A stretch of DNA of 64,000 bases from a virus (lineage: Duplodnaviria > Caudoviricetes). The notes beneath the pieces were generated by a model. That model did no database searches. It was not told the DNA's origin and saw only the letters and a program-made list of their open reading frames with translations. The stretch spans positions 1-64,000 of the IMG/VR virus record IMGVR_UViG_3300033463_000005; one strand, 5' to 3'. Of the stretch, positions 34,743 to 54,404 are shown one piece after another. The stretch's first letter is position 1. Each line of letters opens with the position of its first letter. The position numbers and the translations under genes are program-made.

Positions 34743-34753
34743 AACATGAAAGT

Positions 34754-34966
34754 AATCCGGAATGTGTTTCGAATCGTTACACCACGTGAATCTTCTCTCG
34801 AAAGATTGGTTACCTGACCCAATCTTTGGTTCACGCAAAATGTTGAGATTCCATCATATGCGAGTCATGATGGGTGTGTTCCTCCGAACCTCCGAGCACA
34901 ATGCCATTCTCGATTAACAACATTCCGGATTTTAGGGTTGTAAGTGTGGGGCTTCGGCCCCACACT
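34754..34966 (+). ncRNA. Candidate structured small RNA A (multibranch, anti-SD loop)
   Basis: AACA-N6-TA promoter puts +1 at 34754, the first base of a 12-bp closing stem (34754-65/34920-31); several inner stems; terminator 34943-66; no credible ORF. Confidence 0.7.
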
Positions 34967-35077
34967 GTATCCTATTATTCTGACTTTTCATATATATATT
35001 ATTAATATGAAGAGAGAATAAATTACTCTCTTTACAAAATTTTTACTGGTCTCTATGAGACCGGAAAGGAGAAAACA

Positions 35078-35413
35078 ATGTTTGTAGTAATATTAAAAGT
35101 TAGGCGGATGACCACAGAAAATGATGAGGTTGTCCTTGACGAAAGATCAGAGAGAGTAATCTCTCTGAGAGCCGATTTGGCTTCCGCAATTGTGGATGCC
35201 AAAAAAGCATCCGACAGTATATGGCTGTCCACATGCCTACTTGAGTATGAAACGACCATGGAATGCGAGCTTGGTGGGCGGTTGAACAACACATGGTGTT
35301 CGCCCGGCGAAAATCCCACAGAATTCGGTGGATATATAGACGATGGCGTCAACCACTTCAATTGGACGACCATTGTTGAGGAAGGTGACTTTTGGGAAGC
35401 AGAAGAATCTTGA
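35078..35413 (+). CDS. Acidic hypothetical early protein
   Basis: GAAAGGAG RBS; early-type promoter at 34995. Confidence 0.75.
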   Translation: MFVVILKVRRMTTENDEVVLDERSERVISLRADLASAIVDAKKASDSIWLSTCLLEYETTMECELGGRLNNTWCSPGENPTEFGGYIDDGVNHFNWTTIVEEGDFWEAEES

Positions 35414-35470
35414 TTCCATTCTTCTGCTTCCCAGGAAATAACGATCAATCGGAACCGGATTGAAAGGGGT

Positions 35471-35857
35471 ATGTATATGAAACGATATATTTGCAATGTA
35501 GATATTGGGCATCACATTTATACCGAGCTCGGAGTTCTTTGGATATGTGGAGAAAATGGACTCTTCGTCACCTATGACGAAAATATTACGATATCGTGGC
35601 GGTATGATAATGGCCGTGCAACCGGTCCACGGTTGGAAACAGATGCCATTAGAAGAGCAGCCGAGAGAGTCTCGGCTGCGGCAAATGCTGGTGAGCTCAC
35701 AGAGAAGCACATTGCGGATCTCGTATCCGCAATGATCACGGGCAAATATGATATGACGGAGGATGAGAGATATATCCTCCGGGCAAAGCGCGGTTATTAC
35801 CGTGCCAGAACTGGTGAACTTGTAAAGGTTCACCAGAGGAAGAGAAGGGGCGCTTAA
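35471..35857 (+). CDS. Hypothetical early protein with basic C-terminus
   Basis: GAAAGGGG RBS; C-terminal RGYYRARTGELVKVHQ resembles short nucleic-acid-binding beta-hairpin motifs. Confidence 0.75.
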   Translation: MYMKRYICNVDIGHHIYTELGVLWICGENGLFVTYDENITISWRYDNGRATGPRLETDAIRRAAERVSAAANAGELTEKHIADLVSAMITGKYDMTEDERYILRAKRGYYRARTGELVKVHQRKRRGA

Positions 35858-35880
35858 TGCGCCCCACTCTTTTTTTTTGT

Positions 35881-38016
35881 TTAAAATGTCTGATTGACGT
35901 CATAGAAGAATGATAGATCAGATACAGAAACCTGCTGATCCAATTCTGATTTTTTTGCAATACCAGCGTATTGATTTCTTTGATATCCATATTCGTCGCG
36001 ATCATTTTGACCAATCACATGCATTGGGTCTTGAGATGTTAAATCACGCAGCATTTGATTTTCAAATGCATACGGATTTGCATATGGAATCATATTGTTG
36101 ATTTGTTCGACTTCTAATTCCCGGTCATATTCTTTGACAACTTGTTTTGCATTTTTAAATACACATAATGTTTTGTCAATGTTAAACCGTTCAATTTTGT
36201 ATCCATAATAGAAAACATATAGCACATGGTTGTATGCCATGACCATGTCATCATGGAAACCGGTTGCTGCTTCAACTTTTCCATTTTTAGCACGGACGAG
36301 ATTCGTAATATCCCGTGCAAGATATCTTGTGCACAGCAGATGCGTATAATCTTTCACATGAAGCTTCAATAAGTCGAACATATTCTTTCTGATTTGTGGT
36401 GTGACGTATGTTCCAATATATCCTTTTTCTTTTGCTTTCCGTTTCATTGTCATTTCCGGAGTTTCGTATTCTGTAACATTCTTTGCCATATCCAATTTTG
36501 GATCATGATAGAAGCGATGTTCCAGATGTGATTCCTGAATGAAATCGACAATCGCTTTACCAATGGAATTTGTTTCAACACAGAATACACCGGATGGACA
36601 TAGTTTTGCAATGTCCGTAATGATACGCATCAGATCCATCACACCGATATATGGTGAAATCAATTCACCAACGACTTCAAATGTATATGGATGCACAATG
36701 CAGATCGCGGTATTATCTCCATCACCACCAGCAGCAACGTCGATTCCGATTAGATACGGGATTGTGATATCGAAATACGGTGTATCGGAATTTAAATCGG
36801 TTACTTGTACTTGATGTTTGTATACATATAAGAAGAATTTCTTTCTTAAGAAGATTTCATAATCTGGCTGTTTTGTATTTTGTACAATGTAATCAATGTC
36901 TTTTTGTTCAAACAATACGCTGCCAGAACCACGGTATCTTTGTAACAAAACACCGCGTCGATACTCGTCTGTTTTACCAAGATTTACAACCAATTCTTGA
37001 TGTTGTTGACGTAACCATTTATCATCTTTGCGTAGTTGTTTATAATTGAATTCTATATAGAAACCTGTAATCGGTTTACGAACTTCACCATTATCCAAAA
37101 CAACTTCATCGAACAATGCTTTCAATTCGTCTTCTGTCAAATCATATAACTTTTCACTGAATGTTGGAGTTGCTTCAATCATTCGTAATGCATCACGACC
37201 TTCATCGGTTTCCAAATCTCCAGGTGTAGAATACATCATGATGCATGTTCTACCACCGACAGCACGAATGATATTACGTGCAGATGTAATAGCTGGTGCG
37301 CCGCCTTCCATAACATCTGCGAAGTGTGGAATATATTCATACTCATCGAATGCACCTGCTGCGGAAGTCGCACCACGTAATGCATCGCGAGCTTTTTCTT
37401 TGGAATCAGATTGTGCCAATACAGCAAGTTTTGTTTTATGTGCATCATATATCAATGACTTTGGTCCAGGCGGTTTTGTTTTTTCATACCATGGATTCAG
37501 ATATGAAGGTAATGCATAAACATAATCACGGAATAATGTTGCATTCTGTAAACAGCGTTCCAATTTCAAATGCATCATTGGAATTGTTGCATTCTGATAT
37601 TCGAACAGCATCATGTATTCCAGGATAATGGTACACCATGTCGTCTTGTGTGTCTGACGCGGTTGACATAGTTTGAAATCAAAACTGTGAATGAAGCACC
37701 AGCATATTGCCAATGATGCTCGTGTCAATATTGGTGGGACATTACCAGCACCGATGACGGGAACACGTGCAATCTCTCGAAAAAAGAACCATGGATTCTT
37801 TTTACATTCCACAACAATTCTTCCAATTTCTTCGGCTTTGATATCACTTTTATATGGATCGATATCCTGAACGTTTAAATTCGGATATGCGACTTCTAAC
37901 ATGAAATACCAATTCTTGATACCAAGTGTTTTTAATTCTTGAGCAGTTGTTAAGAATGATGCGTTCTTTGTTCCAAAGTCGTAAAACTTATTTCCAATCT
38001 TAACAATTTTACTCAT
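35881..38016 (-). CDS. terL: Terminase large subunit
   Basis: NPWFFFREI, QPRQTHKT Walker A, FDEYEY Walker B, STPG, IGIDVAAG and HDDMVMAY nuclease motifs. Confidence 0.92.
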   Translation of the reverse strand: MSKIVKIGNKFYDFGTKNASFLTTAQELKTLGIKNWYFMLEVAYPNLNVQDIDPYKSDIKAEEIGRIVVECKKNPWFFFREIARVPVIGAGNVPPILTRASLAICWCFIHSFDFKLCQPRQTHKTTWCTIILEYMMLFEYQNATIPMMHLKLERCLQNATLFRDYVYALPSYLNPWYEKTKPPGPKSLIYDAHKTKLAVLAQSDSKEKARDALRGATSAAGAFDEYEYIPHFADVMEGGAPAITSARNIIRAVGGRTCIMMYSTPGDLETDEGRDALRMIEATPTFSEKLYDLTEDELKALFDEVVLDNGEVRKPITGFYIEFNYKQLRKDDKWLRQQHQELVVNLGKTDEYRRGVLLQRYRGSGSVLFEQKDIDYIVQNTKQPDYEIFLRKKFFLYVYKHQVQVTDLNSDTPYFDITIPYLIGIDVAAGGDGDNTAICIVHPYTFEVVGELISPYIGVMDLMRIITDIAKLCPSGVFCVETNSIGKAIVDFIQESHLEHRFYHDPKLDMAKNVTEYETPEMTMKRKAKEKGYIGTYVTPQIRKNMFDLLKLHVKDYTHLLCTRYLARDITNLVRAKNGKVEAATGFHDDMVMAYNHVLYVFYYGYKIERFNIDKTLCVFKNAKQVVKEYDRELEVEQINNMIPYANPYAFENQMLRDLTSQDPMHVIGQNDRDEYGYQRNQYAGIAKKSELDQQVSVSDLSFFYDVNQTF

Positions 38017-38149
38017 ATCATACACCTCCTCGTGTGATGTGATTTATAATCGATGTTTGATGGCATATTGATAAACATGACGTTTTGTATAACAAAAAAA
38101 TATGCGGGTATTGTGTGTGAATACCCGCATACAAAATAGATGTCCGTGA

Positions 38150-38335
38150 TTATTCTTTACAGAATGGATCCGATGACATCGATAATTGATGTATATGTTG
38201 CAACAGTTGGGTGTTGTCATCTGTCAGAATATGACAGACGGTTTTTAACATAACATCAATGCTTTTGTTTCTGGTTGGACATGCGATCTGAATGGGTTCA
38301 AATTCAGATCGCCCAACCACCATCGATTGACTCAT
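38150..38335 (-). CDS. 61-aa ORF in a highly structured early transcript
   Basis: Own early-type promoter (38377), AAAGGTGG RBS and terminator (38101-38131). Confidence 0.5.
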   Translation of the reverse strand: MSQSMVVGRSEFEPIQIACPTRNKSIDVMLKTVCHILTDDNTQLLQHIHQLSMSSDPFCKE

Positions 38336-38448
38336 ATGATTCACCACCTTTCATGTGTGATTCATATGAATAATATATATAAATAAAAAATATAATATGG
38401 GGGCCATCGGCCCCCATATTTCAATTCATGTGCACGATCTGATATCCG

Positions 38449-40662
38449 TCAGGAGTATTGTTTTAATTGTTGCAGAATTGGTAAGAGTTGCGTGAATCGC
38501 TCATAGATGGATTCAATATAATCACGTGAGCATCCTTCAAACAGATTGGTTTCGTCGATCATTTTATAGAATTCTATCATGTCTACGAATGGATGTGATT
38601 CTTGATAATACATGAAATAGGAATGCATGATCAAGAAGAATCGAAGATCCGGAATGGATACATCGATTTTCACATTATTGATGTAAACAGGATACGTTTT
38701 ATCAACCGCGCCAATTGTTGAAAATCCAAAGATGTCTGGACGTAATTTGATACCCATAAATTTGAGCGTATTCTTCAGGTTATCCAATTGTGGGAATTGA
38801 TTGTACTTCGACAGATCAACACCCATATCATTCAGCTGCGACATCAGAATGGAATTCTCTTCATATTGTGATCCACGGAAATATGTTGTGATTTTTGAGA
38901 AATCCCGAACACCAACTCCAGCGAGGAAATTGTATGTGTCATATTCACCAAATTTCACGGGGTTATCGGAATAATGACGGAGATTCTTATTGAACTGATG
39001 TGTCTTAACAGGTTGATCATAAAGCGTTGTACGACCAGTCGAAACTGCGGCCAATGATTTAGAAGGCTCCTGCTTTAACACCCAAGTATACTGGAATCCG
39101 ACTGGATATTTATCATCCAATTTGACCCAACGTTTATGAAGCTTTGTGAATACATTATAATGCTTCATAATATCCGGGTATTTATCATATGCTTCCAGAA
39201 TTGCGTCACGAATGCAAACTTCATTAAACGGTTTGATTTGAATAATGTTTCCATTTGTCAGAATGTCATTGATGACAGCATTCGGATTCTCGGCATATAA
39301 CCGGCGAATTTCATCCGCTTGTTGTGGATTGAAGATTCCGACGAAGTCAGAAGTAATCTTCACAATGTCATCATTGGAAGCACCGTCATGATGCATTTTT
39401 GCAATATGTTGATTCATGCGATCCATCATGAACGTCATGGAACCTTCGTATGTTGCGAATGCAATGATACGGTTTGGAACCGCCAACGCATTTGCTAACA
39501 TATGAATCGGTCTACCATCATCCGTTCTCGGCATATCTTCCGTCGGAATGATTTTGGAAATAACGGATTTGTTTCCGTAACGTCCAACGACTTTCTGACC
39601 AACGGCAATCTTCATGGGTTGTAACATCGTGAATTTGATAATGGTATCCGCAATGTATTCCTTTGTAACCCATGTTGAATGATTCAAATACTTTTCTGCT
39701 TGATGGTAGATATCCAGCAGCGAAGTATCATCTTGAAATTTATCATCAAGCAATGCGGAAATATATGCATAGATGTCAGAATACCATTGACGAATTTGTG
39801 TCAGATACATGTTGAATTGCTCGTTCTCAACATCAACATTTGAAAAGATATCAATATCTACAACAGTTCCATGTGAGAAGTAATTCGTGTCATTGATATG
39901 TGGGATGGATGCTTCTGCAAATGTTGATACATATGAATTCTCACGAATGGAGCATAAGATGTTATCCTGCACCTCTTCACCAATATTCGGAAATGGTTTG
40001 TATTCTCCGTCTCTGCCATAACGGTTCAACAGGAATGATTTCTTTGACACATTTACTGTGACAATGTCAACCATATCATATTCCAATGCTTTTGCGGCAT
40101 CCGAAGAAATGATCAACGAATCTTCTGTTAATTGTGGAAGAACCGCATATGCCATTCGAAGATTCACACCAGCACAGTAATTGTCATTTACATATGAAGA
40201 TGATTGTGCAATTGCAGCGCCCTTCTTCAACACATCTCCTTCACGAATCTGTTGAATGTAATTCTTCATTCTGAATCCATATTTCTCAACAAGATTCACG
40301 GCCGGTTTATAAATCTTACAAATGTATTTTCCCGTCGCTAAATTCTGAAAGATGTATGCAATTGGAGAAAATGGTGCATTTGGGAATTTTACAAACTTTT
40401 TCATCAATTTGTAATCGTCAGTTGCACGGACATTCCATGATGAACGTTTTCCAAATTCATTTTCTGCACCGGAGAAAATCATAGGGAATTCCGGATTCCG
40501 CAGAACCAATCTCTGTGACACATGCTTCACCATCATTCCACCACGTGTTGTAGAGATCTTTTCAGGAAATCCCATTGCAGACATTCCAGTTAGTGACAAC
40601 GGATCGACATCAGCACATCTCCGATCGATATCCGATGCATTATTCATAACTTGTTTCGGCAT
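38449..40662 (-). CDS. rpoB: RNA polymerase beta subunit, C-terminal part (probably non-virion RNAP)
   Basis: EDSLIIS, GQKVVGRYGNKSVIS, MPRTDDG, NALAVPNR, VKFGEYD; the early-type promoter suggests nvRNAP. Confidence 0.9.
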   Translation of the reverse strand: MPKQVMNNASDIDRRCADVDPLSLTGMSAMGFPEKISTTRGGMMVKHVSQRLVLRNPEFPMIFSGAENEFGKRSSWNVRATDDYKLMKKFVKFPNAPFSPIAYIFQNLATGKYICKIYKPAVNLVEKYGFRMKNYIQQIREGDVLKKGAAIAQSSSYVNDNYCAGVNLRMAYAVLPQLTEDSLIISSDAAKALEYDMVDIVTVNVSKKSFLLNRYGRDGEYKPFPNIGEEVQDNILCSIRENSYVSTFAEASIPHINDTNYFSHGTVVDIDIFSNVDVENEQFNMYLTQIRQWYSDIYAYISALLDDKFQDDTSLLDIYHQAEKYLNHSTWVTKEYIADTIIKFTMLQPMKIAVGQKVVGRYGNKSVISKIIPTEDMPRTDDGRPIHMLANALAVPNRIIAFATYEGSMTFMMDRMNQHIAKMHHDGASNDDIVKITSDFVGIFNPQQADEIRRLYAENPNAVINDILTNGNIIQIKPFNEVCIRDAILEAYDKYPDIMKHYNVFTKLHKRWVKLDDKYPVGFQYTWVLKQEPSKSLAAVSTGRTTLYDQPVKTHQFNKNLRHYSDNPVKFGEYDTYNFLAGVGVRDFSKITTYFRGSQYEENSILMSQLNDMGVDLSKYNQFPQLDNLKNTLKFMGIKLRPDIFGFSTIGAVDKTYPVYINNVKIDVSIPDLRFFLIMHSYFMYYQESHPFVDMIEFYKMIDETNLFEGCSRDYIESIYERFTQLLPILQQLKQYS

Positions 40663-40811
40663 AATAGATACTCCCTTCCGTAACATAAATTGTATTTGTT
40701 AGTTACAATGCTTATGATATTAAACACAATCATTGTACATACACGGAAATCATATACATGCCAAAATAAAATTAATATATGTGGGGGCATATGCCCCCAC
40801 ATATATTACCA

Positions 40812-41666
40812 TCATAGAACCGATGCGACGTTTCGAATAAATGTAACTGCTTCAGATTCTGTATGAATCTTCATATCAGCACATGCATATGATGCATTCA
40901 GATAAACACCCAGAACAATGAAGATATCGGATTTGATTGTGATATTGGTGAACAAGCGTTTGATCAGATCATCCAAATCAAACTTCGGAACGAATTCATC
41001 TTCCGTCGTCATATAGAATTTTGTGATCATCTGATAATCAGGTCCGAAGAAAAGTAGATCATCATACTTGTCCATTTTCTCCAGATCAATCTTGCTCCGC
41101 ATCAGATAGTTATTCAAATCTTCATAGGAAACTTCTCTTGCAACATATTCAATGACAGGAGTCATATTAGAGAAGATTTGAATCCGAATGCGTTCAATCT
41201 GATCAATATACTTGAATAGACAATAATAAATGAAAATGTCATCGATGACATCGTCCATTGTAACTTTATTGTCATTCAATGCGACAATAACCGGATGTGT
41301 TTCTCCGAGAGTATGACGCAGTTCTTCCGGCGTGACTCTGGATTTGATTCTACCGTATTCCGGAACGGTTTGATTTGTGACAAATAGCTTTGTCTTTTTC
41401 GGTTGACGTTCCGTGGATTCCGGTTCTTCTACTGGTTTATCATCATCGGTACATGGAATGAATGCATCCAATGGTAATGTCTCTAGTTCAATATCCCATG
41501 TGAATGCTTTGTAATACTTCGTATAATCATCACGTGTTAGAATTGTATGACGTCCATTCAATAATCGAATGTTTTGGAAAAATACATCACACGAAGAAAT
41601 CAACATCTTGTGTCGTTCCAGACGTTTCTCGAATTCTAATACAGATGCTTTTGGAATCATAATCAT
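40812..41666 (-). CDS. Hypothetical protein
   Basis: 284 aa; ATGA overlap with the upstream small ORF. Confidence 0.75.
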   Translation of the reverse strand: MIMIPKASVLEFEKRLERHKMLISSCDVFFQNIRLLNGRHTILTRDDYTKYYKAFTWDIELETLPLDAFIPCTDDDKPVEEPESTERQPKKTKLFVTNQTVPEYGRIKSRVTPEELRHTLGETHPVIVALNDNKVTMDDVIDDIFIYYCLFKYIDQIERIRIQIFSNMTPVIEYVAREVSYEDLNNYLMRSKIDLEKMDKYDDLLFFGPDYQMITKFYMTTEDEFVPKFDLDDLIKRLFTNITIKSDIFIVLGVYLNASYACADMKIHTESEAVTFIRNVASVL

Positions 41667-41854
41667 GATTGTGATCTTCCTTCCATTGTGTTTGATTGCT
41701 GCCTTGCATTATTTTTATTCTCGTAATATTCATTTCGAATTGGTTGATAATTCTCGACAACATACGAAATTCCATTACGTTGTATGAAAACATGAACGAA
41801 GTCGTTCAACCGAATTTGTTGAACGACTTCGAATGTCGTGATCGTGGCCACCAT
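41663..41854 (-). CDS. Small hypothetical protein
   Basis: GAAAGGA RBS; coupled to the downstream gene. Confidence 0.55.
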   Translation of the reverse strand: MVATITTFEVVQQIRLNDFVHVFIQRNGISYVVENYQPIRNEYYENKNNARQQSNTMEGRSQS

Positions 41855-41892
41855 ATGATTCAGATCCTTTCATAATGAATATTTTTGTTTGA

Positions 41893-42120
41893 TTATGAAA
41901 GTTCATCGACCAGATCATCAATTGCCGTATCATGAAATACCTGACGTGCATGATTAATCGAATCTGTATGCGATGAATTCATCGCCTGCATATTCTGTTT
42001 CGCTTGATGTTCTTTCTGTATCTTTCGAATCTCTCGGAGACGGTTTACGAATTTTCGTGGCATTCGTAAGAGTGTCTCTATTGGCAAACATCGATTGAAT
42101 AAGTCACCCAATTCAATCAA
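41893..42120 (-). CDS. Small protein coupled to the baseplate assembly gene
   Basis: TTGA overlap with 42117..43889; GGAG RBS. Confidence 0.6.
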   Translation of the reverse strand: MIELGDLFNRCLPIETLLRMPRKFVNRLREIRKIQKEHQAKQNMQAMNSSHTDSINHARQVFHDTAIDDLVDELS

Positions 42121-43889
42121 TTCGACTCCATCCCGATCAAGTTTATTTCGGTAGACGACAGCCTCCGAGCAAGTTGGAAAATCAAGTCTTCTCCAATGTC
42201 AGGAATAATGATACGGTCGTCATGGTGACCACAATTATCACATGTGAAGTTCTCGATATAGAACTGCATGGGTGATGCGGTCTTCTTTGCAATTGTCTGA
42301 ATCAGATTCAACAGGATTGCCTGATCCTTCATATCCAATGATGTTGTGATAATCTTCTCGATATCATCCCAATCATCAAACCGATATTCAACCTCTTCAC
42401 CCTTGTTATTCTTCTTGATGATAGAGATTGCGGTGATGAACAGAGCATGTGTCAACAGATAACCATGCTCCGGATTCTCCTCGGTATCATCGGTTCTGCC
42501 ATCCGGATAGAATCGTTTCTCCAAAGCATTCATCAGAGGATAACGACGATTCAAGAAATCGTATGCAGAAGGACGATCATCGATTTCAACAATGAATCCG
42601 GTGTTCGGAAGCTTGTACCGTTTCAATGTGGAATTAATTTTGTTATAATGGTCAATTGCGGGTTGACCATAGCCAACAGTATGTGTTGTTTCATACTGGT
42701 ATTCTTTCATCAATTCATCATCAACATGAATGATGGTGCGAGGACGATACTTCAAGCTATGGACCTTTTTACATTTCGGATTCGAGCAACGAATCGGAAC
42801 CGTCTCCTCATCATCTGCAGCACCAATCAGGATACCCCACATCAACAGCTCACGATCACCATACTTGGTTTTCTTCAAGAAATCTTCGAAATCTTTGAAC
42901 TCACCGATGGAAACGTTCTTGATATGATCGTAAATAATAGACCACTGTTTCTTATCCTGGTCAACAGAATTACCGGACATCGGTGTAGAACCAAGCTGAA
43001 TGAATTCATAATAGTTGACCGGTTTCAATGTGCAACGATATGCAGACAACGGAAGTGTCAGCGGCACATCACCGAGTTCTGCAACATACGGTTCAATGAT
43101 ACCAGCCTGCTGTGAATTATGAATCACCTTTGATGACATCAATTCTTGTTGTGTCACTTCTTTCACGATGATGTTGATCTGATTGGTTGTTGTCATTGCC
43201 TGTACAACATCCTGGTCCACATTCACCGTGACAGGAGAACCTTTCTCAACACTGATGTTGATCGTTGGCGGTTCTTGGCTTGGCATCTGATTGTCTGATG
43301 CAACCGTTTCTGTTGTTTCTACTGCATCCTGTGTTTCCTGCTTTGGTTCTTCCGGCTGTACTTCCGCAGGAACCCAGTTCCTGATGATCAGCTGTTCAAA
43401 TTCCGGTGTAATCGTCGTGCCAGAAACATGATAGATGGAAACCAATTCGCCCATGATGTGACGCTGCAACTCCGGATCGTCATCGGTTGAAACCGGGATG
43501 CCACCAACAGGAAGATTGTTCTTCTTCACAACTTCATCAATCATCTGACCAACAATATCAAGTGTCGTTGCTTGGAATGTAATAGCTTGATTTTGATATT
43601 CTTTGTCAATTGAAATCGGGGGCATAGCAACCTTCTTGGCTTCTTCTTGCTCTCGTTCAATACGAGACTGTGCTGCACGCAAAGCGCGTTCTTCAGCATC
43701 TGCTTCCTCTTCACGTGCAATTTCTGATGCAAGATCATTTACGCCATATTCATCATCAGCATCAGAAGTTTGATTTGCCATTTCTGATGTTGCTTCAACT
43801 GCATCAGAAATGGGTTCGGAACTTGGTTCTGTTTTTGACACACGAGACATCAGTTCCTCGAGCGGATCTATGAATTGTGTATTATCCAT
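42117..43889 (-). CDS. Baseplate hub assembly protein-like (T4 gp26-like) with acidic N-terminal extension
   Basis: LTLPLSAY, DRELLMWGI, CSNPKC, YKLPNTG and CDNCGH follow the gp26-like chaperone pattern; near tail genes. Confidence 0.55.
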   Translation of the reverse strand: MDNTQFIDPLEELMSRVSKTEPSSEPISDAVEATSEMANQTSDADDEYGVNDLASEIAREEEADAEERALRAAQSRIEREQEEAKKVAMPPISIDKEYQNQAITFQATTLDIVGQMIDEVVKKNNLPVGGIPVSTDDDPELQRHIMGELVSIYHVSGTTITPEFEQLIIRNWVPAEVQPEEPKQETQDAVETTETVASDNQMPSQEPPTINISVEKGSPVTVNVDQDVVQAMTTTNQINIIVKEVTQQELMSSKVIHNSQQAGIIEPYVAELGDVPLTLPLSAYRCTLKPVNYYEFIQLGSTPMSGNSVDQDKKQWSIIYDHIKNVSIGEFKDFEDFLKKTKYGDRELLMWGILIGAADDEETVPIRCSNPKCKKVHSLKYRPRTIIHVDDELMKEYQYETTHTVGYGQPAIDHYNKINSTLKRYKLPNTGFIVEIDDRPSAYDFLNRRYPLMNALEKRFYPDGRTDDTEENPEHGYLLTHALFITAISIIKKNNKGEEVEYRFDDWDDIEKIITTSLDMKDQAILLNLIQTIAKKTASPMQFYIENFTCDNCGHHDDRIIIPDIGEDLIFQLARRLSSTEINLIGMESN

Positions 43890-44041
43890 ATCGCTTCAAT
43901 TCTCCTTTATCATAATTTAATTTCAAACAGAAACATATATGATTATTATGAATCATCATATGAAATAAGTATGAAATTATAAGGACTGTTTAAGGAATGT
44001 CTGTATAAAAATAAATAACTTCATTTGAAAGGAATGAGTTC

Positions 44042-44770: not shown

Positions 44771-44773
44771 ATC

Positions 44774-45391: not shown

Positions 45392-45392
45392 T

Positions 45393-45791: not shown

Positions 45792-45832
45792 AGAGATATG
45801 TGGGGGCTTTCGCCCCCACATACCATCTTCGA

Positions 45833-46948
45833 TTACTCGTTATCTTTTTTCTTGATGACCGGACGATACGGGTCAGCAATAGAGGTATAACTACCTTGTG
45901 GGTCGTTATAGATACGAGAGTGATCAGCAGGTGTGATTGCAGCTTCCGGTTTCGCCGCACGAACAACATTACGCTGCTCGGCTTCGAATACAGGAATGTT
46001 ACCGACACCAGACTGAACAGCATCCAGATCAGGACGTCTACCCTTATTGAACATATCGGTGTTGATATCACCATATGTTGTCGGGTTCGCAGTCGTGAAG
46101 AATGCATCGCCAGCACCAGGATTGAAGTTGAGCTTGTTGCCAAAGATCGCAAACTGTTGAACATATCTTGCAGCAAGGTCATTGACATATGCAGACTCGA
46201 CGAACTGACAGTTGTATGTCAGTGTAAGTGTCTGCAGATTAGATTGACCCTGACCATTATGATTGAAGAGATCATATCCAACCTTTGCAGTCGGAATGCA
46301 ACCAAGTGCCATCAGAGCACCCTCAACACGTGCACCAGATCTATCGAGTGCAATGATGAGGAATTCTGCAACTTCCCATGCAGGGGATGGCTCCAGTGCC
46401 AGAGAAGATCCGCCACCGTTTGCCGGCATGAAGATACGCTGCGGAACTTCATTTGCATCAACAGAACCTGCAACAAGACCCTGATAATGTGTGAGACCAG
46501 TGATCTCATCAGCAATACCATCAATCCACATATTATGGAAGTTCGCTGCAGGACGACCCTGAAGTTCAGGAATCGTGATGCTCAATTGTTGGTTATTGTT
46601 CGCATTCTGAACAGTCGGAATGGCGATGCTTCTTGCAGCAAAACCACCCTGCAGGTTCGTGAATGCCAGTGAGTGATCACCAGGCTGAACCTGAATGCCA
46701 GTATTGTAGAATTCAACCAACTTCTTGTATGTCGCAAATTGAGTGTTGGTATATGCATCTCTTCCGTCACCGAAATAATGCATCAAGAAGAAAGGACCGC
46801 GATACATGACACAGATAACACGGTTTGTTGTCTCGGGGTTTAGACTCCGGAGTGTATGAACATCCGGAGTCAAACCGCCGAGCATACCTGTATACTGGGA
46901 GAGATCTCCATTGTATTCGCGAATACCAGTTTGAAGGCTAATCGGCAT
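45833..46948 (-). CDS. Tail tube protein
   Basis: Directly downstream of the sheath; ITIPELQG...WIDGIADEITG tube-fold pattern. Confidence 0.75.
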   Translation of the reverse strand: MPISLQTGIREYNGDLSQYTGMLGGLTPDVHTLRSLNPETTNRVICVMYRGPFFLMHYFGDGRDAYTNTQFATYKKLVEFYNTGIQVQPGDHSLAFTNLQGGFAARSIAIPTVQNANNNQQLSITIPELQGRPAANFHNMWIDGIADEITGLTHYQGLVAGSVDANEVPQRIFMPANGGGSSLALEPSPAWEVAEFLIIALDRSGARVEGALMALGCIPTAKVGYDLFNHNGQGQSNLQTLTLTYNCQFVESAYVNDLAARYVQQFAIFGNKLNFNPGAGDAFFTTANPTTYGDINTDMFNKGRRPDLDAVQSGVGNIPVFEAEQRNVVRAAKPEAAITPADHSRIYNDPQGSYTSIADPYRPVIKKKDNE

Positions 46949-46973
46949 AATCGTTTACTCTCCTTTCTGTAAA

Positions 46974-49900
46974 TTAGCTGGAACGTCTGTTGACATTCAC
47001 GATGACCGGGATCCGGAGAGTGATACCACGGAATGTGACGTTCACATAGCAGACAACAACCTCACCACCGTCGATTGGATCGATGTCGCGAGCAAACTCA
47101 ATTTGAAGTGATTCAACCAAGTTGCCAGCCCAGTTGGAGAACATGTTGTTGACTTCATCAGAGATTGTCTTCAGCACAGAATCATCCGTATACTCAAACA
47201 GCTTCTCTTCCAACTTGTTCTGGAGCATATAGCAGAGTTGAGAGAGTGTTCTCATATTGGATTCCTGGAGCAGGTCTGATGTCGAAGAAGATCTCATGAG
47301 CGTGCGCTGAGATTTACGAACGAGGTTGCCGTTCACATCCGGTACCCAAACGTTACCACCAGCATTATACAGAAGCTCTCTGTAATCCCAATCTGTGACG
47401 TCGAGATCCGGGAAGAAGGAGAGATATTCGGTTGGACGAATCATTGTATAGTTGCCAGTGAACGGTTTGTTGACCGTCGTGGACTTGCAGTGTCTTGCCA
47501 GATTGTCTGCAATTCTCTTGACGAATGTGTATGGGTTGCCATCTGCTGCAGAGACATAACCACCAATATCCCAAGAACCGTTCGGGTTATCGAAACGCTT
47601 CAGGAAGGAATTGTTGATTGCAGTTGCAGAGATGGAATCAGACATACCACCATCAAGATGCAGTGACAGGCCATAACCAGGACCGAGCGGACGCTTTGAT
47701 TCTGGCATGCCATAGTAGCAACGGTACACCATCAGATCATACATTGCAGCCTTAACGTCAATGTCAGCAGAATCCCAAGTGATGATATTCGGATGGAGCA
47801 TAACTTCATCTTTCTCATCTGCAGTGAAGATTGTGGAAGCATTGATCAATTCAGCCGGAGTGTACTGAATCGACGGAAGTACAGTCTGTCCAACGATTGT
47901 GTTCGTACCACCGTCAAACAGATATTTTGCCGCGCATCTGACAGGAGACATGATTCTCGGATCAAGTTGACCGCGATATGCACGAACAAGCAGTTGTGAA
48001 TATCTCCACTTGAACTCGATATCATTCAGAGCATCATCGAAGAAACCGGTGTAACCATCGTGGAGTTTCACACCACCATAGTTCGAAGTGACGTTGATGC
48101 CGTAGTTATTGGAGTAATAATCATTCGGAATCACGACAGCGGTTTCTTCTTGTACACGGAAGATGGAACCAATGGAACCAGTCACCATGTAACGAACGAT
48201 GTCCTTCGGAATGAAGTTGTCGCCAATGACCTGTGTGAAGTCATTCGCTGTGAATGCGAAGTTTGTCACCTTCACGATTTCGGTTGCTGAAGAATCATCG
48301 GTATAACCGGATGCACTCTTCACAACCATCCTGACGAATTTGTCGCTCTTCTGGAATGCATCTGCTGCAGCCAGATAGTAGTAATCACCAGCAACCTGAT
48401 CGAAGTATCTCGTGTGATTATCCTGGGTGAGTTCAGTGGTGTATGCAGCATCCGAATAGAACTTTCCATCTTCGGTCTTGTAATAACCAGCAACATCTTT
48501 CGTGACGAGACGATATGTGCCAGCAATATCATCAAGATCTTGCATGTTCGGTTCTGCAGCAGTACCATAATTGATGAACGGATGATTCTTCGCGTTATAT
48601 TGCTGCAGACGAACAGTACCTTCTGATGTTGCATAACCATCGAGCAGAGAAACGATCTTCTGACCGATGTAATATGTATCAGTAGTCCATTCCGGAGCAG
48701 TATCACCGACAACAGGCTTGTATTCAACATTATCGCCACTACCAGTTTTCACGAAGTAGTTCTTATAATGATCAGCCCAATCAGAAGGTGCAGCATTCAG
48801 TAATGTATACTGATAGGATTCAAACGCATACTTTCTGTCAGTACCGACAGTTGACATATAGGTGAGTTGTTCCTGGGAGAAACCACTACCAGATGTCACA
48901 GCGCTCTTTGGCTGATAGTACTGGAAGTCATCTTCACTGACCTGGAAGACATCAAACTCGGTACCAATCACATCTGCATCAACAGAGACATTAGAAGGAA
49001 CAGCACCATACTTCTTGGTTGCAGCAGTAACTTCAACCAGTTCATCCAGCTTCGATTCAATGTTAGAAGCATCGATCGGAGTCTCGGTATACGGAACGAC
49101 ATACACTTTCGATGCAGTATCATCAAGATCGATGTAGGTGCTTCCGATTGTGATGTCAGGAGCCTGTTGACCAGCAGGTGGAGTCAACTCAGTAGACAAT
49201 GTGACCAGATTCGAATGCTGAACAGCATCCCAATTGATCTTGCTGTAGATATCACCTGTCAGCTCGTCAACGCTGTCAAGTGCATTGACAACGAAGAGCT
49301 TCCATGATGTGTTATTGGTATCTTCTGTATCAACACCAACCACATGCTTTGCAATGATATCACCGAGGTGAACAGAACCGTTGTCAAGCTTTCTCTTCAA
49401 TGCTGCCGTGATGTCATCTGTGATTGCATTGACATCAAAGATTGCACTCAGCGTTGCCGGAGTGTTATTGTTGTTCAGGAGTGAATTGGTTCTGATTGTG
49501 GTAATTGCACCACTGAACTGATTCACACCAGTAACAACATACAAGAACGGATTCGTCATGGAGGATGTGCCAGAATAGAGATAAACATCACCAACATAAG
49601 TCGTTGAACCATCACCATTCACACCCTTTGTCATCGGAAGCAGCTTGTCATTCAACAGCTGCGGAGCATTCTTGTTTTCCTCTGTGGTGTAGATGCAATT
49701 GGATGCAGGAAGCATCTGAATATCAGCAGAACGCATATCAACCTGGAAGAACGGAAGCTTCACAGCTTCATCAGTTCCACCATAGATATACAGACCAAAG
49801 ATCGGATCAAACGTATTGATGTTCATGAATGTGAACACTTCGCGCTGATAATCTGTGATCAGACTGCCGTCAGACATATTGACGAGATTCTGGTAGTTTG

Positions 49901-50753
49901 CACGATACTCATTGTAGAGTTCGCGAACTGCAGCTTCATTCACAAAGTTGACAACAACGGAAGAACCATCGACACGACGTTTCATCGCAACATTAACGCA
50001 TTCAACTGCATCGTCACGATCACCGTTGTTTTCATTGATCAATGATGCGAAATACTGTTCAACGTATACGCTTCTGGTTGTGTCATATGTGGAGAACATA
50101 TAACGAACATTTGCAGGACGTTTACCCTGAACAGTCTGGTTGATCATCGTCGAATAGACATTATATGCAGAACCACGACCAGCAGAGATGTTGACCATGA
50201 ATGCACGACGCTTCCACGGAATCTGGTACGGATCATTTGCAGCAGGTGCGACTTCACCAGCAGCAGCTTTCACGATAGCAGCATTCAGACGTTCTTTATT
50301 GCTGTAATTTGCAAGAGAACGATTCTGCATCAATGTTGCGTTGTCGAGTGTGTTGTAACGGACATGCATTTTCTGCTCATCCGGAATCCAACGCCATTCA
50401 ACTGTCACACAAGAATACGCATAACATGCATCATCCGGTGTAACACGCATCAGCTTGACCGGTGCACCCTGTTCAATCAAAGATAATGGATATGTGATTG
50501 TTTGTCCATATTTTTGAATATCACTTGTGGCAAGATTGCCGAGACCGAATGCAACATTCAGAACATCTGAACGTGTGACATTGATCATCTTTCTGTCTTC
50601 ACCCAACGGCGTACCGACAACAACAATGGTTCCATACAGAGATGGATCGTCCGCCGTCAAGACACCGAGCTCACCCGTGTACGATGAGTTATCCACGATA
50701 TGGATTAACACATGCGGAAACGGATATTTCAGACCAAACTTTGTCTCAAGCAT
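46974..50753 (-). CDS. Tail sheath protein (large, with insertions)
   Basis: KYGQ..YP, MRVTPDDA, YLFDGG, SQRTL...LLQESNMRTL and C-terminal VNVTFRG are contractile sheath signatures. Confidence 0.88.
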   Translation of the reverse strand: MLETKFGLKYPFPHVLIHIVDNSSYTGELGVLTADDPSLYGTIVVVGTPLGEDRKMINVTRSDVLNVAFGLGNLATSDIQKYGQTITYPLSLIEQGAPVKLMRVTPDDACYAYSCVTVEWRWIPDEQKMHVRYNTLDNATLMQNRSLANYSNKERLNAAIVKAAAGEVAPAANDPYQIPWKRRAFMVNISAGRGSAYNVYSTMINQTVQGKRPANVRYMFSTYDTTRSVYVEQYFASLINENNGDRDDAVECVNVAMKRRVDGSSVVVNFVNEAAVRELYNEYRANYQNLVNMSDGSLITDYQREVFTFMNINTFDPIFGLYIYGGTDEAVKLPFFQVDMRSADIQMLPASNCIYTTEENKNAPQLLNDKLLPMTKGVNGDGSTTYVGDVYLYSGTSSMTNPFLYVVTGVNQFSGAITTIRTNSLLNNNNTPATLSAIFDVNAITDDITAALKRKLDNGSVHLGDIIAKHVVGVDTEDTNNTSWKLFVVNALDSVDELTGDIYSKINWDAVQHSNLVTLSTELTPPAGQQAPDITIGSTYIDLDDTASKVYVVPYTETPIDASNIESKLDELVEVTAATKKYGAVPSNVSVDADVIGTEFDVFQVSEDDFQYYQPKSAVTSGSGFSQEQLTYMSTVGTDRKYAFESYQYTLLNAAPSDWADHYKNYFVKTGSGDNVEYKPVVGDTAPEWTTDTYYIGQKIVSLLDGYATSEGTVRLQQYNAKNHPFINYGTAAEPNMQDLDDIAGTYRLVTKDVAGYYKTEDGKFYSDAAYTTELTQDNHTRYFDQVAGDYYYLAAADAFQKSDKFVRMVVKSASGYTDDSSATEIVKVTNFAFTANDFTQVIGDNFIPKDIVRYMVTGSIGSIFRVQEETAVVIPNDYYSNNYGINVTSNYGGVKLHDGYTGFFDDALNDIEFKWRYSQLLVRAYRGQLDPRIMSPVRCAAKYLFDGGTNTIVGQTVLPSIQYTPAELINASTIFTADEKDEVMLHPNIITWDSADIDVKAAMYDLMVYRCYYGMPESKRPLGPGYGLSLHLDGGMSDSISATAINNSFLKRFDNPNGSWDIGGYVSAADGNPYTFVKRIADNLARHCKSTTVNKPFTGNYTMIRPTEYLSFFPDLDVTDWDYRELLYNAGGNVWVPDVNGNLVRKSQRTLMRSSSTSDLLQESNMRTLSQLCYMLQNKLEEKLFEYTDDSVLKTISDEVNNMFSNWAGNLVESLQIEFARDIDPIDGGEVVVCYVNVTFRGITLRIPVIVNVNRRSS

Positions 50754-50919
50754 CAGGATATCTCTCCTTTACTATAGATTTTAAATTGGCTATATTATGA
50801 AGATCTGGCATGAAGAATCGCAATTCATGCAGATAAACCTCACAATTATCTTTTTGTGTGAAGGCGCATTTGGACACGTGATATAAATGAGATATGGGGG
50901 CAAACGCCCCCATATCGTA

Positions 50920-51888
50920 TTATAAATCTCTCTTAAATTTAACCTTGTACACCTGCATCAAATCATCTGTCGCAGATGAATTCTCACCATCCCGGACGAC
51001 ATCGACAATCTTTGTATCCGGTTTCGGATAATCGGGAAGTAGTTCTCCTGATGCAGAATATGTAATGAAATCATAATCAGAATCTGTATCACCAAGAAGA
51101 ACATATGTTGTTGGGTTATCTTTTTCATATTGCACAGTTGGATTAATAGACTGCGCTTCACCGATAATATCATCTAATACCACAGAAGCTTGATCTGGAT
51201 TTACCGTTGGGAAATTTGTAGATGCTGTAGCCGTGTCAACTTGTGTTTGTGATGGATTCATATCGAAGATTGTATCCATAATCGTCCTTCCCATTTCAAA
51301 TGGAGTCGAAGGTCTTCCGCCAGATACTTGATTCGGATTCGCTCCTTGTCCCGACTGTTGCTGTTGCTTAATTTTCAATTCAGCAATGTTTTTCTTAATT
51401 CCAATCTGTTCTTTATTGATTGCGGTAATTGCGGAACGAGCAGATGTCAATGCTTGCATTGCTGCAATGTCATCTTCATTCAATCCAAATTTTCCTTTGT
51501 CATTTAAGCTCTCCAGCAGTTTCCGTTCAAATACACGGATCACTTTAATTTGATCCGCAGCCAGTGTTCTCAATGCCGCAATGTCAGATGTAAATATCTT
51601 ATTTGGATCTAAACGTTCTTGTAGTGGTCCAAGTTCCAACTGGGATGATAGCTTCTGCATGATATCAGATGAAGCACCCCAGTGTCCACTTGCATATGGT
51701 GAAATATATCCATCGATATTTGGATTAAATTTCGGACGTTCGGAAAATTGTGCATATCGATCTAACCACACATGTGGATCATCTGCAGGACGATCCCATT
51801 CAGCTTGTGGTTGTGCTTGCATTGTTTCCGCCACTTGCTCGAATGATTGCATTTGATCTGCTTGACGGAATGAATCTAACATACTCAT
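50920..51888 (-). CDS. Hypothetical protein with coiled coil
   Basis: 322 aa, GAGGAG RBS. Confidence 0.75.
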   Translation of the reverse strand: MSMLDSFRQADQMQSFEQVAETMQAQPQAEWDRPADDPHVWLDRYAQFSERPKFNPNIDGYISPYASGHWGASSDIMQKLSSQLELGPLQERLDPNKIFTSDIAALRTLAADQIKVIRVFERKLLESLNDKGKFGLNEDDIAAMQALTSARSAITAINKEQIGIKKNIAELKIKQQQQSGQGANPNQVSGGRPSTPFEMGRTIMDTIFDMNPSQTQVDTATASTNFPTVNPDQASVVLDDIIGEAQSINPTVQYEKDNPTTYVLLGDTDSDYDFITYSASGELLPDYPKPDTKIVDVVRDGENSSATDDLMQVYKVKFKRDL

Positions 51889-51919
51889 GGAGATTCTCCT
51901 CTCAATATACTATTATAAA

Positions 51920-51998
51920 ATGATAGAGAGGGTGGAGGATGTTAGGAGGTTGACATATCACGGGCAAATATGATATGAATGGCAGCCCTCTCTATCAT
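51920..51998 (-). ncRNA. Candidate small RNA B (or structured leader of the 51888 gene)
   Basis: AACA-AAAGGA-TA puts +1 at 51998, the first base of a 13-bp perfect stem (AUGAUAGAGAGGG/CCCUCUCUAUCAU) followed by UUU; inner 7-bp hairpin; two CCUCC motifs. Confidence 0.7.
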
Positions 51999-52065
51999 AT
52001 CCTTTTGTTCAGATAAATTCAAATATCAAAAAAAAATATGGAGGGACATTGTCCCTCCATATCGT

Positions 52066-53571
52066 TCATTCCATTTTGGTTAAACCATACAAACCATTCA
52101 ATGCTTCTTTCTCTATCGGGAAAGCTGCACTCAAATCAGGACGAATATTATATGCTTTTGATACCATCAATTTTTCTGCTTGTTCATTTGCTTCATCCGA
52201 CCATATTCCAGTACTCTTAACCGTATCACCATCGTAGTCGCCATTCAAATTAATCAGTCTTGCATTTGACATCTGCAACACATCAATGAACGATGTTGAA
52301 GCAACAGCATGGGATGCTTGTGGATCTACTATTGGATATGTCTGATACGTTTCACCCATGAACTGAACTGGGATTGTATTATTCGTTGACAACACATGGA
52401 TCTTTGTAAAGAATGCACCAAGATAATCACCGATTGGATATCGAACGGTGTAAACATGCTTGTTTCCTTTGACACAAGCGTTGTAGCAACATAGATAAAT
52501 AACGTCAGTTAATGTCAATTCTCTTGTGATCGGTTCTTTCGTTTTCAAGTTCATGGCAGAGAAAGTGATGGGTCTCTTATTCTCTGGATCCGCATAAAGG
52601 ATTCTAAATCTACTACCAGGGTTTTGCATAAAGATTCGCATCAATTCTTCCATCGCTCTATCATCATAGATATTATCAATGTCCGAACGTTTGATATCAT
52701 CCGGACTTGGATCAAATGAAACGATATTATCATATGACAAAAATTGTTTCATTTGGAATTTTACAAATGGATGGAACATGGACACGAGTGACATCATTGG
52801 ATAACCCGTTCGATAGATACCGATCACTGGATTATTGGATCGATAGGATGGTGCAGAAATGACATTACGAACAGTTCCAACTGTATTCTTTGCCAATAGA
52901 TTCTTTTGTAAGAATCCATTCTTTGTGCCACAATATTTATGGACATACGAGTATACTTCGATTACAGCATTTTGAATCTGGTTGTATACCTTATATACAT
53001 TTGCCGTTGTATGTGCTGTGACACTCTGATATCCAAGTAGCTTAATATAAATAGAATTCAATTCGGATTTAACGGGTCTACCATTTCGCATACCAGTTGG
53101 ACGCATTGCGGGTGGAAGTACCAAAAGCTTATCAATGAATAATAAACGTTTTGGAGTCTTGATTAAAATCTCAATATTTTCTTCTCGACGAGATTTCATT
53201 GTTTTCGCAATATCAATCTGATCCCAGATCTCATATAGATCTTTTAAACCACAATACTTACCATTTTCATTTTCGTGTAAGACACCGTCTACAAGATCAC
53301 ATTTAATTTCTGCAAATGCCAACTTTCGAATGATTCCACCAGATCGACCGATGATAGTTTTTGCAATATGTGGATTAAATACGTGGATTGGTAATTTCAG
53401 ATATCCACATTTGTATTTTCTTTCATCTTCCGTTTGTCCGAATATTTCCTCTGAAAATAATCCGGTTGGATTCCATTGGTTTGTTGATCGATATATTGCT
53501 GCGGATGTGACTTCTTGTAAATTATTAACTTTGATATCTTGGTCGATATCATACAATCCCTGAATCTTCAC
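52066..53571 (-). CDS. rpoC: RNA polymerase beta-prime subunit, N-terminal/catalytic part (probably virion RNAP)
   Basis: GLFSEEIFG, GYLKL, LVLPPAMRP, RNVISAP, VRYP and the catalytic NGDYDGD; GTG start with AAGGAGG; late-type promoter. Confidence 0.9.
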   Translation of the reverse strand: MKIQGLYDIDQDIKVNNLQEVTSAAIYRSTNQWNPTGLFSEEIFGQTEDERKYKCGYLKLPIHVFNPHIAKTIIGRSGGIIRKLAFAEIKCDLVDGVLHENENGKYCGLKDLYEIWDQIDIAKTMKSRREENIEILIKTPKRLLFIDKLLVLPPAMRPTGMRNGRPVKSELNSIYIKLLGYQSVTAHTTANVYKVYNQIQNAVIEVYSYVHKYCGTKNGFLQKNLLAKNTVGTVRNVISAPSYRSNNPVIGIYRTGYPMMSLVSMFHPFVKFQMKQFLSYDNIVSFDPSPDDIKRSDIDNIYDDRAMEELMRIFMQNPGSRFRILYADPENKRPITFSAMNLKTKEPITRELTLTDVIYLCCYNACVKGNKHVYTVRYPIGDYLGAFFTKIHVLSTNNTIPVQFMGETYQTYPIVDPQASHAVASTSFIDVLQMSNARLINLNGDYDGDTVKSTGIWSDEANEQAEKLMVSKAYNIRPDLSAAFPIEKEALNGLYGLTKME

Positions 53572-53680
53572 GATAATACCTCCTTGACATGTAGGATGTT
53601 ATCGAGACGTTTTTATATTCATCCATTACAGAACAAAAAATAAAGAGCCGAAATGTTCCCGCATTCCAGCTCTTTATTTT

Positions 53681-53836
53681 TTATTTCGACCATGGTCTTG
53701 CAATGGATGATTTACTCTTTATTGCTTTATGGCAATAGCGAGATTCAATCATCTGTGCAGTTTCCATGATCGATTTCCGTGTGTTCGATGCTTTGGGGTT
53801 GCAGGGAGACACACGGATAATGGATGATTGGTGCAT
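53681..53836 (-). CDS. 51-aa basic ORF not in the track (MHQSSIIRVSPCNPKASNTRKSIMETAQMIESRYCHKAIKSKSSIARPWSK)
   Basis: Perfect AAAGGAGGTG RBS; followed by a terminator hairpin near 53634-53682; the mRNA is almost entirely paired. Confidence 0.5.
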   Translation of the reverse strand: MHQSSIIRVSPCNPKASNTRKSIMETAQMIESRYCHKAIKSKSSIARPWSK

Positions 53837-53878
53837 TCTGACACCTCCTTTCCAAACGTGGGATTAGATTGGGGCGCA

Positions 53879-54163
53879 TCAGCGCCCCAACCGTCCCATG
53901 TTCTTCTTCCACCGAGCGATGTACTCGCTCGGCGTTTCTTTATTTCTGATTGTCACCCAGAAGACAATCAGAATATTCGCACAGATCATCCAAGGATGAT
54001 CTTCCGCGATGGGGTTGTACCCCTCACGGATCAGATAATACAGGGATACAATCGTATTGATCCCTGTGAACCCGAAGAACATTAACCAGGATACAAACCA
54101 ACCAATGTTCTTCCAATTGAGGTGTCTTTTCACAGACGCCTTTCTTTCTAGCTTCTTAACCAT
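53879..54163 (-). CDS. Small two-helix membrane protein
   Basis: Start ATG 54163 after GAAAGGAG; two hydrophobic segments; early-type promoter at 54234. Confidence 0.75.
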   Translation of the reverse strand: MVKKLERKASVKRHLNWKNIGWFVSWLMFFGFTGINTIVSLYYLIREGYNPIAEDHPWMICANILIVFWVTIRNKETPSEYIARWKKNMGRLGR

Positions 54164-54257
54164 TTTGATCTCCTTTCTGTGACATGAGTTGAAATTTATT
54201 TGTTTAAAATATCTCATGTCAATATAATAATATATATATATGTAATATGAAAAAAGA

Positions 54258-54404
54258 AGAATGTGGGGCAAAAGCCCCACATTCAAATCAGGGTGATTCT
54301 TACCCGATGAGTTAAGGTAAGAATCGGCTAGGAGGCAAGCAATGGCCCAATGAGTTCGGAAAATCTTCAACGGCAAGTGAAGATTGGGTTCATCAGATGA
54401 ACTT
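54258..54404 (-). ncRNA. Candidate small RNA C
   Basis: GACA-AAATTG-TA puts +1 at 54404; stems 54362-69/54378-85 and 54295-304/54316-25; GCCAUUGCUUGCCUCCUA between them; ends at terminator 54258-83 with a U tract. Confidence 0.6.

Follow-up and report, generated by a model that had tools for sequence, protein, structure and literature searches.

Two structured non-coding RNA families with exposed anti-Shine-Dalgarno motifs in an uncultured jumbo phage clade distantly related to AR9

The first 64,000 nucleotides of the IMG/VR virus record IMGVR_UViG_3300033463_000005, referred to here as the window, contain three intergenic elements: A on the plus strand, and B and C on the minus strand. Comparative sequence analysis indicates that A and C are two separate and unrelated families of structured non-coding RNA, each predicted to form its own transcription unit. 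A preliminary description of this DNA had proposed three small RNA (sRNA) genes belonging to a single family. For A and C the proposal largely holds: both are structured non-coding RNA genes on the strands proposed, conserved with compensatory changes in relatives. B is a leader without a terminator. No homology among A, B and C was detected by BLAST or by two covariance models, which leaves the single family unsupported, and what the elements have in common is a style only: a 5′ stem at or beside the start, an exposed CUCC and a CCAUU-type block. Every string quoted earlier for the three elements was recovered at its position. The words said to be shared by A and C (ACCCAAUCUU and UCCGAAC) are nevertheless absent from the orthologues (e.g. 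L006 and L083-L090) and are best read as coincidence, and GCCAUU, present in the window, is reduced at the family level to CCAUU, with GCCAUA in L006.

The window opens a genome of 258.5 kb with 38.8% G+C, so that its coordinates run on genome-wide. The phage is an uncultured rumen jumbo phage of a clade distantly related to Bacillus phage AR9. Its RNA polymerase (RNAP) genes are split and multisubunit, of the AR9/phiKZ type, and the nearest cultured phages (AR9, PBS1, BpSp and Goe21) reach only ~30% identity in the RNAP subunits. A nucleotide search gave no match among GenBank phages. The Rfam search returned nothing at the gathering score over the whole window and terminator-like noise only for the three element regions at E values up to 10, and the screen run beside it found no tRNA or tmRNA. 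The comparison set was the IMG/VR clade of uncultured relatives (labelled L001 and so on), several of whose contigs are near-complete (250-280 kb). The elements were aligned with covariance models, because MAFFT did not keep them in structural register.

Conserved structure of elements A and C

A-type RNAs occur at the orthologous site after the helicase gene in L006, L007, L008, L009, L010/11, L012/13, L109 and L112, and nine distinct sequences are available. In all nine, the first base of the closing stem P1 is the last base of a motif AAC(G/A)-N6-TA, which reads AACA in the window and L006 and AACG in the seven others. In the window, P1 is a perfect 12-bp stem whose first base is the predicted transcription start (+1); across the family it pairs AAUCCGGRRUG with CAYYCCGGAUU, with CCAG/CUGG in L006. 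The common fold consists of P1, a pyrimidine-rich junction (CCUUCUCC or CCUCUCUCG), two hairpins, the third hairpin P4 and a single-stranded CAUAAUACACCAUUCG before the 3′ half of P1. Every orthologue presents a CUCCU loop on a P4-equivalent hairpin whose stem sequence differs, and the conserved blocks sit in junctions and loops, comprising the P1 sequence itself, a GCGGG loop and CAUAAUACACCAUUCG. In the window, CCUCC occurs at 34881 and 34889, both within the P4 loop, and GCCAUU lies at 34903-08. The predicted minimum free energy is -55 kcal/mol (z = -3.8 against dinucleotide shuffles), and z-scores of -3.6 to -5.4 were obtained for most copies of the elements.

Four near-complete genomes each gave exactly one match to a covariance model built from three A-type sequences. 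When seven sequences were aligned under the guidance of the model, 90.4% of cells could pair, compared with 75.6% in shuffles, and double-sided changes are seen in 18 of the 34 pairs, with slid-partner controls pairing at 37-54%. G-U cells outnumber A-C cells by 13 to 2, an excess that favours the plus strand. In more distant relatives, whose helicase is ~60% identical, the elements at the A position are different and shorter: a closing stem or a hairpin presents CCUCCUA within a loop or an unpaired segment. CCUCC is present in all elements behind the helicase, distant relatives included. In AR9, the helicase gene g156 is followed by a terminator only, with no comparable element. A mobile-element reading of the terminal inverted repeat of A, as in a miniature inverted-repeat transposable element, was rejected in view of the single copy per genome and the conserved synteny.

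The upstream side of A varies in two relatives. Both L007 and L012/13 carry a further element, complete with terminator (L007:6072-6246 and L012:2140-2379), between the helicase stop codon and the A-type RNA, and the promoter motif is still placed exactly at P1. In the L007 element, which is in tandem with A, AUUCCAU/AUGGAAU forms the closing stem and CCUCC lies in the apical loop; this element is possibly a further example of the style. In the window itself the helicase is apparently split into an ORF (open reading frame) at 32970-33395, a 249-nt gap and an ORF at 33645-34742, with relatives aligning only from residue 9 of the latter (region 32970-33667).

Element C has orthologues in L083, L085, L087, L089 and L090, giving six distinct sequences with that of the window, and the motif GACA-N6-TA is kept in all six. 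The RNA begins with H1, an invariant hairpin GUUCAU/AUGAAC whose loop length ranges from 3 to 6 nt, a variation that speaks for an RNA hairpin rather than a dimeric DNA operator. The stem of H2 differs by genome below a UUGCCG-type loop, the stem of H3 likewise differs by genome, and a GC terminator follows. Between H2 and H3 lies a linker that is mostly unpaired in the six sequences and holds CCAUUGU in 4/6 (CCAUUGC in the window) and YCUCC in 5/6. The fold has z = -4.9 against dinucleotide shuffles. A covariance model from one relative alone recovered the C element of the window at 37 bits (E 5e-9). Among five C-type sequences, 93.5% of cells pair, compared with 74.6% in shuffles, 19 pairs show double changes, slid controls pair at 36-44%, and G-U and A-C cells number 6 and 3. 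In four relatives, the C terminator directly precedes the AACG promoter of the RNAP beta′ gene; since this next gene has a promoter of its own right after the terminator, C is taken as its own unit. No conserved ORF is present on either strand of the elements. Conservation in relatives, which had been named as a check on the proposal, extends to the structure and the CUCC of both A and C, whereas B is absent from five relatives. The features are collected in Table 1.

Table 1. Positions of the three elements and associated features in the window (SD, Shine-Dalgarno)
Feature	Position	Strand	Details
A promoter-like motif AACA-N6-TA	34743..34754	+	AACA 34743-46, T 34753, predicted +1 = A 34754
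A-type RNA, 178 nt	34754..34931	+	closing stem P1 34754-65/34920-31 around a multibranch fold
A hairpin P4	34875..34900	+	stem UGUGUUC/GAGCACA, 12-nt loop CUCCGAACCUCC, anti-SD-like display
A single-stranded 3′ junction	34901..34919	+	holds GCCAUUC; CAUAAUACACCAUUCG in most orthologues
GC-rich terminator hairpin after A	34944..34965	+	same module behind every orthologue
Early-type promoter box ATATATATTAT-N6-G	34985..35011	+	serves operon 35078-35857; outside the A RNA
C promoter-like motif GACA-N6-TA	54404..54415	-	GACA 54415-12, putative +1 54404; off-consensus at -11
C-type RNA, ~145 nt	54260..54404	-	H1 54402-54388, H2 54385-54362, linker 54361-54326, H3 54325-54295, terminator 54283-54260
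C linker, weakly paired	54326..54361	-	CCAUUG 54345-40, CCUCC 54335-31; reverse complement of UAGGAGG-N6-AUGG
Early-type promoter of divergent topoisomerase gene (54525+)	54420..54441	+	abuts the 5′ end of C; fits early consensus
B motif AACA-N6-TA	51998..52009	-	AACA 52009-06, predicted +1 51998
B hairpin element, 79 nt	51920..51998	-	13-bp perfect stem 51998-86/51932-20; CAACCUCCUAACAUCCUCCA unpaired; 5′ leader of gene 50920-51888
B 22-nt stretch	51957..51978	-	perfect complement of + strand mRNA 35735-35756, inside gene 35471-35857

Promoter motifs of the elements

Recognition of AR9-type promoters by the non-virion RNAP (nvRNAP) requires uracil-containing DNA. The late consensus of AR9, read by this enzyme, is AACA-(6N)-T(A/G) with the start at the last base, and A(-11) and A(-10) are essential (Lavysh et al. 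2017, PMC5312081; Fraser et al. 2022, PMC9209446), the promoter form being also that given in the preliminary description; the early consensus is AAATATATATTAT-(6N)-G (PMC5312081). Late units of AR9 thus share the promoter form and the position of the start with the motif found here, and the present clade prefers AACG. In this genome, AACG-N6-TA has a density of 0.36/kb between genes and 0.13/kb in coding sequence, with N5 and N7 spacing controls at 0.19-0.21/kb. About 10 AACG copies, together with AACA, AACC and AACT variants (~15 in all), stand 37-43 nt upstream of an ATG preceded by a ribosome-binding site (RBS). The intergenic enrichment and the fixed distance to genes indicate that the AACN-N6-TA motif class is real, and by analogy with AR9 it would belong to the nvRNAP. 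Genes behind the motif are mostly of virion type; they encode pieces of RNAP-beta (one with a fused virion-protein domain), a virion structural protein and giant proteins, as well as DnaB and UvsX; some of these RNAP-beta pieces probably belong to the virion RNAP. The RNAP beta′ gene of four relatives is also preceded by an AACG-type motif.

Among 3143 NACN-N6-T(A/G) sites genome-wide, only A and B are intergenic with a perfect stem of at least 12 bp exactly at +1, and the earlier observation that the predicted start of both is the first base of a perfect 12-13-bp stem accordingly describes a rare arrangement. Element A is very probably made by the nvRNAP of the phage and would hence be middle or late in timing, and late expression of A is likely.

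The form ATATATATTAT-N6-G of the AR9 early consensus also occurs in this phage. This A/T-rich box, found after A and after C, has more than 10 copies genome-wide. It is part of a module, GC-hairpin terminator plus early-promoter box, that likewise recurs more than 10 times in the genome (e.g. 18915-18986, 145359-145391 and 171525-171645), the copy at 171525-171645 being a 123-nt sequence 87% identical to the module after A. A BLAST search for paralogues of the elements within the genome returned only these terminator and early-promoter module repeats.

Element B and further loci

No terminator was found between B and the RBS (~51900) of gene 50920-51888, and for this reason B is read as the 5′ leader of that gene. 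Its fold has z = -5.7 against dinucleotide shuffles. The interval that separates the RNAP beta′ gene from the gene after it holds no B in L001-L005. The 22-nt match between B and 35735-35756 (BLAST E 2e-5) has sharp borders and forms a direct repeat with copies 16 kb apart; its 22 nt match, in frame, seven codons of gene 35471-35857, which lies in an early-promoter operon. Neither the 22-mer nor this gene occurs in any fetched relative, and being unique to this genome they point to B either as an antisense leader that is young and confined to this lineage or as a relic of recombination. Through the perfect match, B may additionally pair with the mRNA of the early gene 35471-35857.

B may instead be a fossil without a function of its own, in which ACCUCCUAAC is the RBS remnant of a lost reverse-strand gene and the 22-mer a duplicated gene fragment. 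L001 has a reverse gene at the B position whose RBS, GTTAGGAGGT, is identical to the reverse complement of the B string ACCUCCUAAC, and both the reading frame of the 22-mer and the lack of conservation of B fit such an origin. The 13-bp perfect stem placed exactly at the +1 of AACA-N6-TA is, on the other hand, rare, the fold is stronger than its shuffles, and the 22-nt identity has sharp borders with dissimilar flanks, unlike a decaying duplicate; we regard the fossil as possible, but on balance somewhat unlikely. If B is an active antisense leader, it recalls the phage antisense regulators with long perfect matches, namely the c4 RNA of P1/P7, directed against ant, and the OOP RNA of lambda. 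It differs from these in that it would act in trans from 16 kb away, is located in a 5′ leader and is complementary to an internal coding site rather than to an RBS.

Other parts of the genome were noted in passing. A stretch of ~365 nt without coding capacity (141910-142274, minus strand) lies downstream of the RNAP-beta gene 142275-144197, which carries a virion-protein domain and probably belongs to the virion RNAP. This stretch, with a possible further example of the style at ~142091 (minus strand), holds a hairpin CAUAUCA-acccaccucc-UGAUAUG, with a counterpart CUAUUAC-uacccaccuca-GUGAUAG in L130. In L128/L129, ~400 nt of conserved non-coding sequence contain CUCC-type tracts. The stretch may hold a third RNA in the style of A and C. 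Long stretches devoid of ORFs under crude gene calling were seen at 231800-235150 and 244500-248050, with tRNA-like strings (e.g. at 234339) and repeated pentamer-like tracts. A pattern scan for further copies of A gave second matches in the large contigs L028 and L044 and ~20 metagenome matches, all dismissed as chance or other motifs. The soil metagenome contigs L092, L102, L105 and L108 carry a conserved motif, ACACCATTCG-N10-CATTCCGGATT, before a divergent gene, as do many soil contigs; it is operator-like in look, unrelated to A, and a chance match to the search pattern for A.

Predicted mode of action and significance

The exposed CUCC(U) of both families is the complement of the AGGAGG-type SD sequence of nearly all genes in these phages. 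A displays the CUCCU hairpin loop, the CCUUCUCC-type junction and the CCAUU block, and C displays CCAUUGU...YCUCC in its open linker, which corresponds to the antisense of GGAG...ACAAUGG, so that both RNAs would expose pyrimidine motifs complementary to RBSs of phage and host. The 5′ stem, with the predicted start within 0-2 nt of it, would stabilise the transcripts against the 5′-end-dependent decay of Firmicutes, and a strong GC hairpin would close the 3′ end of each unit. In the proposed mechanism, A and C base-pair in trans with SD and start-codon regions and thereby block initiation, as do the streptococcal cia-dependent small RNAs (csRNAs). This design makes the masking of translation starts the best-supported mechanism, and we consider it a tentative prediction whose chances fall a little short of even.

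The csRNAs of Streptococcus, which depend on CiaRH, place their anti-SD and anti-AUG motifs between stem-loops, where the RNA is unpaired (Marx et al. 2010, PMC3091779). They are likewise short (~90-150 nt) and of a Firmicutes-type system, and C shares their layout of a 5′ stem-loop, an unpaired CCUCC-like anti-SD with a CAU anti-start, and a terminator. A shares the motif content and differs in being a closed four-helix junction whose anti-SD is shown by the loop of a hairpin. Neither A nor C matches the csRNAs in sequence or through Rfam; the csRNAs are bacterial and use a CiaR promoter, whereas A and C are encoded by a lytic-type jumbo phage with putative promoters of the phage RNAP type. 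The display of the P4 loop of A also resembles the C-rich-loop sRNAs of Firmicutes (the hairpins of S. aureus RNAIII, and RsaE/RoxS), in which a C-rich, anti-SD-like motif in a hairpin loop starts pairing with the SD. The motif in A is CUCCU and not UCCC/CCCC, and A is of phage origin and has no homology to these RNAs.

Several observations weigh against the proposed mechanism and its place in the phage programme. Early and late genes share the same strong AGGAGG-type SD, so that a bare anti-SD seed would lack selectivity, and RNAduplex finds many comparable partners per genome (-25 to -34 kcal/mol). The best orthologue group for A in a four-genome ranking, the gene after the topoisomerase (56860-58866), stands ~3 standard deviations from the mean of 85 groups and yet ranks only 48th in this genome; the best RNAduplex target of C here, 193212-193796, has no orthologue in the relatives. 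When flanks were shuffled and the core was kept, clear significance was reached only by A in a single genome (0/60); three further seed-genome sets were borderline (2-3/60), and the remaining four were not significant. The CCAUU block of A lies 3′ of CUCC, the wrong order for one continuous RBS antisense, and the alignments behind the pair counts were fitted to the model structures. As to transcription, a genome search and tblastn gave no homologue (E 0.4 or worse) of gp226, the promoter-specificity subunit of AR9, which may be missed if diverged, since the RNAP subunits are themselves only ~30% identical to those of AR9. The GACA of C, though conserved, fails the A(-11) requirement of AR9 promoters, and no other GACA-N6-TA stands 37-43 nt before a gene in the genome. 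The promoter class of C is for this reason uncertain and its late timing doubtful, and the late expression proposed earlier for all three elements is backed by an AR9 late-type motif in the case of A; the AACA motif of B also has the AR9 late form. The related proposal of a shut-off of early mRNAs fits the 22-nt antisense match of B to an early-operon mRNA, and meets in A and C the missing early/late selectivity of a bare anti-SD.

Some of the same observations can be accommodated if A and C are protein- or ribosome-binding RNAs, acting as a decoy, a scaffold or a mimic of the 16S 3′ end, with the pyrimidine loops as recognition elements. The closed multibranch fold of A, with both ends paired, resembles that of stable ribonucleoprotein RNAs, its conserved blocks are placed in junctions and loops, duplex ranking yields no selective mRNA target, and the phage's own late genes would be among the targets of a generic anti-SD. 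This reading is nonetheless unlikely: the analysis yielded no candidate for a partner protein, the open linker of C is the classic layout of a base-pairing sRNA, and the distant relatives keep only a CCUCC in a loop, which is minimal for a protein site and enough for SD pairing. Action in cis, either as a 3′-UTR (untranslated region) or insulator module through which the upstream transcript is stabilised or terminated, or as a riboswitch-like attenuator gating late read-through into the early operon, would suit the position of A directly behind the helicase stop codon and the strong terminator 12 nt after it, an aptamer-plus-platform layout; B, for its part, is a real 5′ leader without terminator, and its 3′ arm CCCUCUC could pair with the GAGAGGAG SD of its own gene. 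We consider cis action quite improbable, given that the promoter motif is placed exactly at P1 in all nine A copies, even behind a terminator, that L009 has no same-strand gene after the terminator, and that P1 and the terminator show no visible antiterminator overlap. Moreover, the downstream genes have promoters of their own, in relatives the promoter of the next gene follows C, and Rfam gave no match.

A function of the opposite strand, whether as AGGAGG-displaying minigenes, standby sites or CsrA-type GGA-loop sponges, is highly improbable. The reverse complements do read as RBS-plus-ATG in the window, and the folding energies of sense and antisense are about equal and do not tell the strands apart. 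The ATG is, however, missing in L008, L009 and L010, the ORFs vary from 2 to 45 codons, and GGA loops number only one or two per element, compared with many in sponges of the CsrB/RsmZ type. The G-U and A-C counts favour the given strands and the promoters and terminator T-tracts are directional, so that the CCUCC strand, as first proposed, is favoured as the functional one over the GGAGG strand.

sRNAs combining anti-SD and anti-AUG motifs are already known in bacteria, as the csRNAs (PMC3091779) that the earlier claim of novelty overlooked; what is new is the occurrence of RNAs of this predicted kind in a phage with its own RNAP promoters. A term search of the AR9 transcriptome paper (PMC5312081) gave antisense transcripts only, and neither noncoding nor small RNAs. 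A stronger reading, in which A-type RNAs and C form a late translation-reprogramming device made by the non-canonical phage RNAP, either a general 16S anti-SD competitor or a selective silencer of early mRNAs (e.g. of the topoisomerase operon), is a long shot; if true, it would be the first system of functional, regulatory sRNAs to be described in an AR9-like jumbo phage.

Hardly any work has addressed the regulatory RNAs of virulent jumbo phages; non-coding RNAs have been listed for Pseudomonas jumbo phages. The present analysis adds two RNA families, both new and both well supported by comparison, that carry a conserved anti-RBS motif; in one of them, A, the predicted start coincides with a phage-polymerase promoter. 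It also extends the early/late promoter grammar of AR9 to a distant uncultured rumen clade in which AACG is favoured over AACA. If A and C work as proposed, phages with multisubunit RNAPs would also use translation control at the level of sRNAs at the early-to-late switch.

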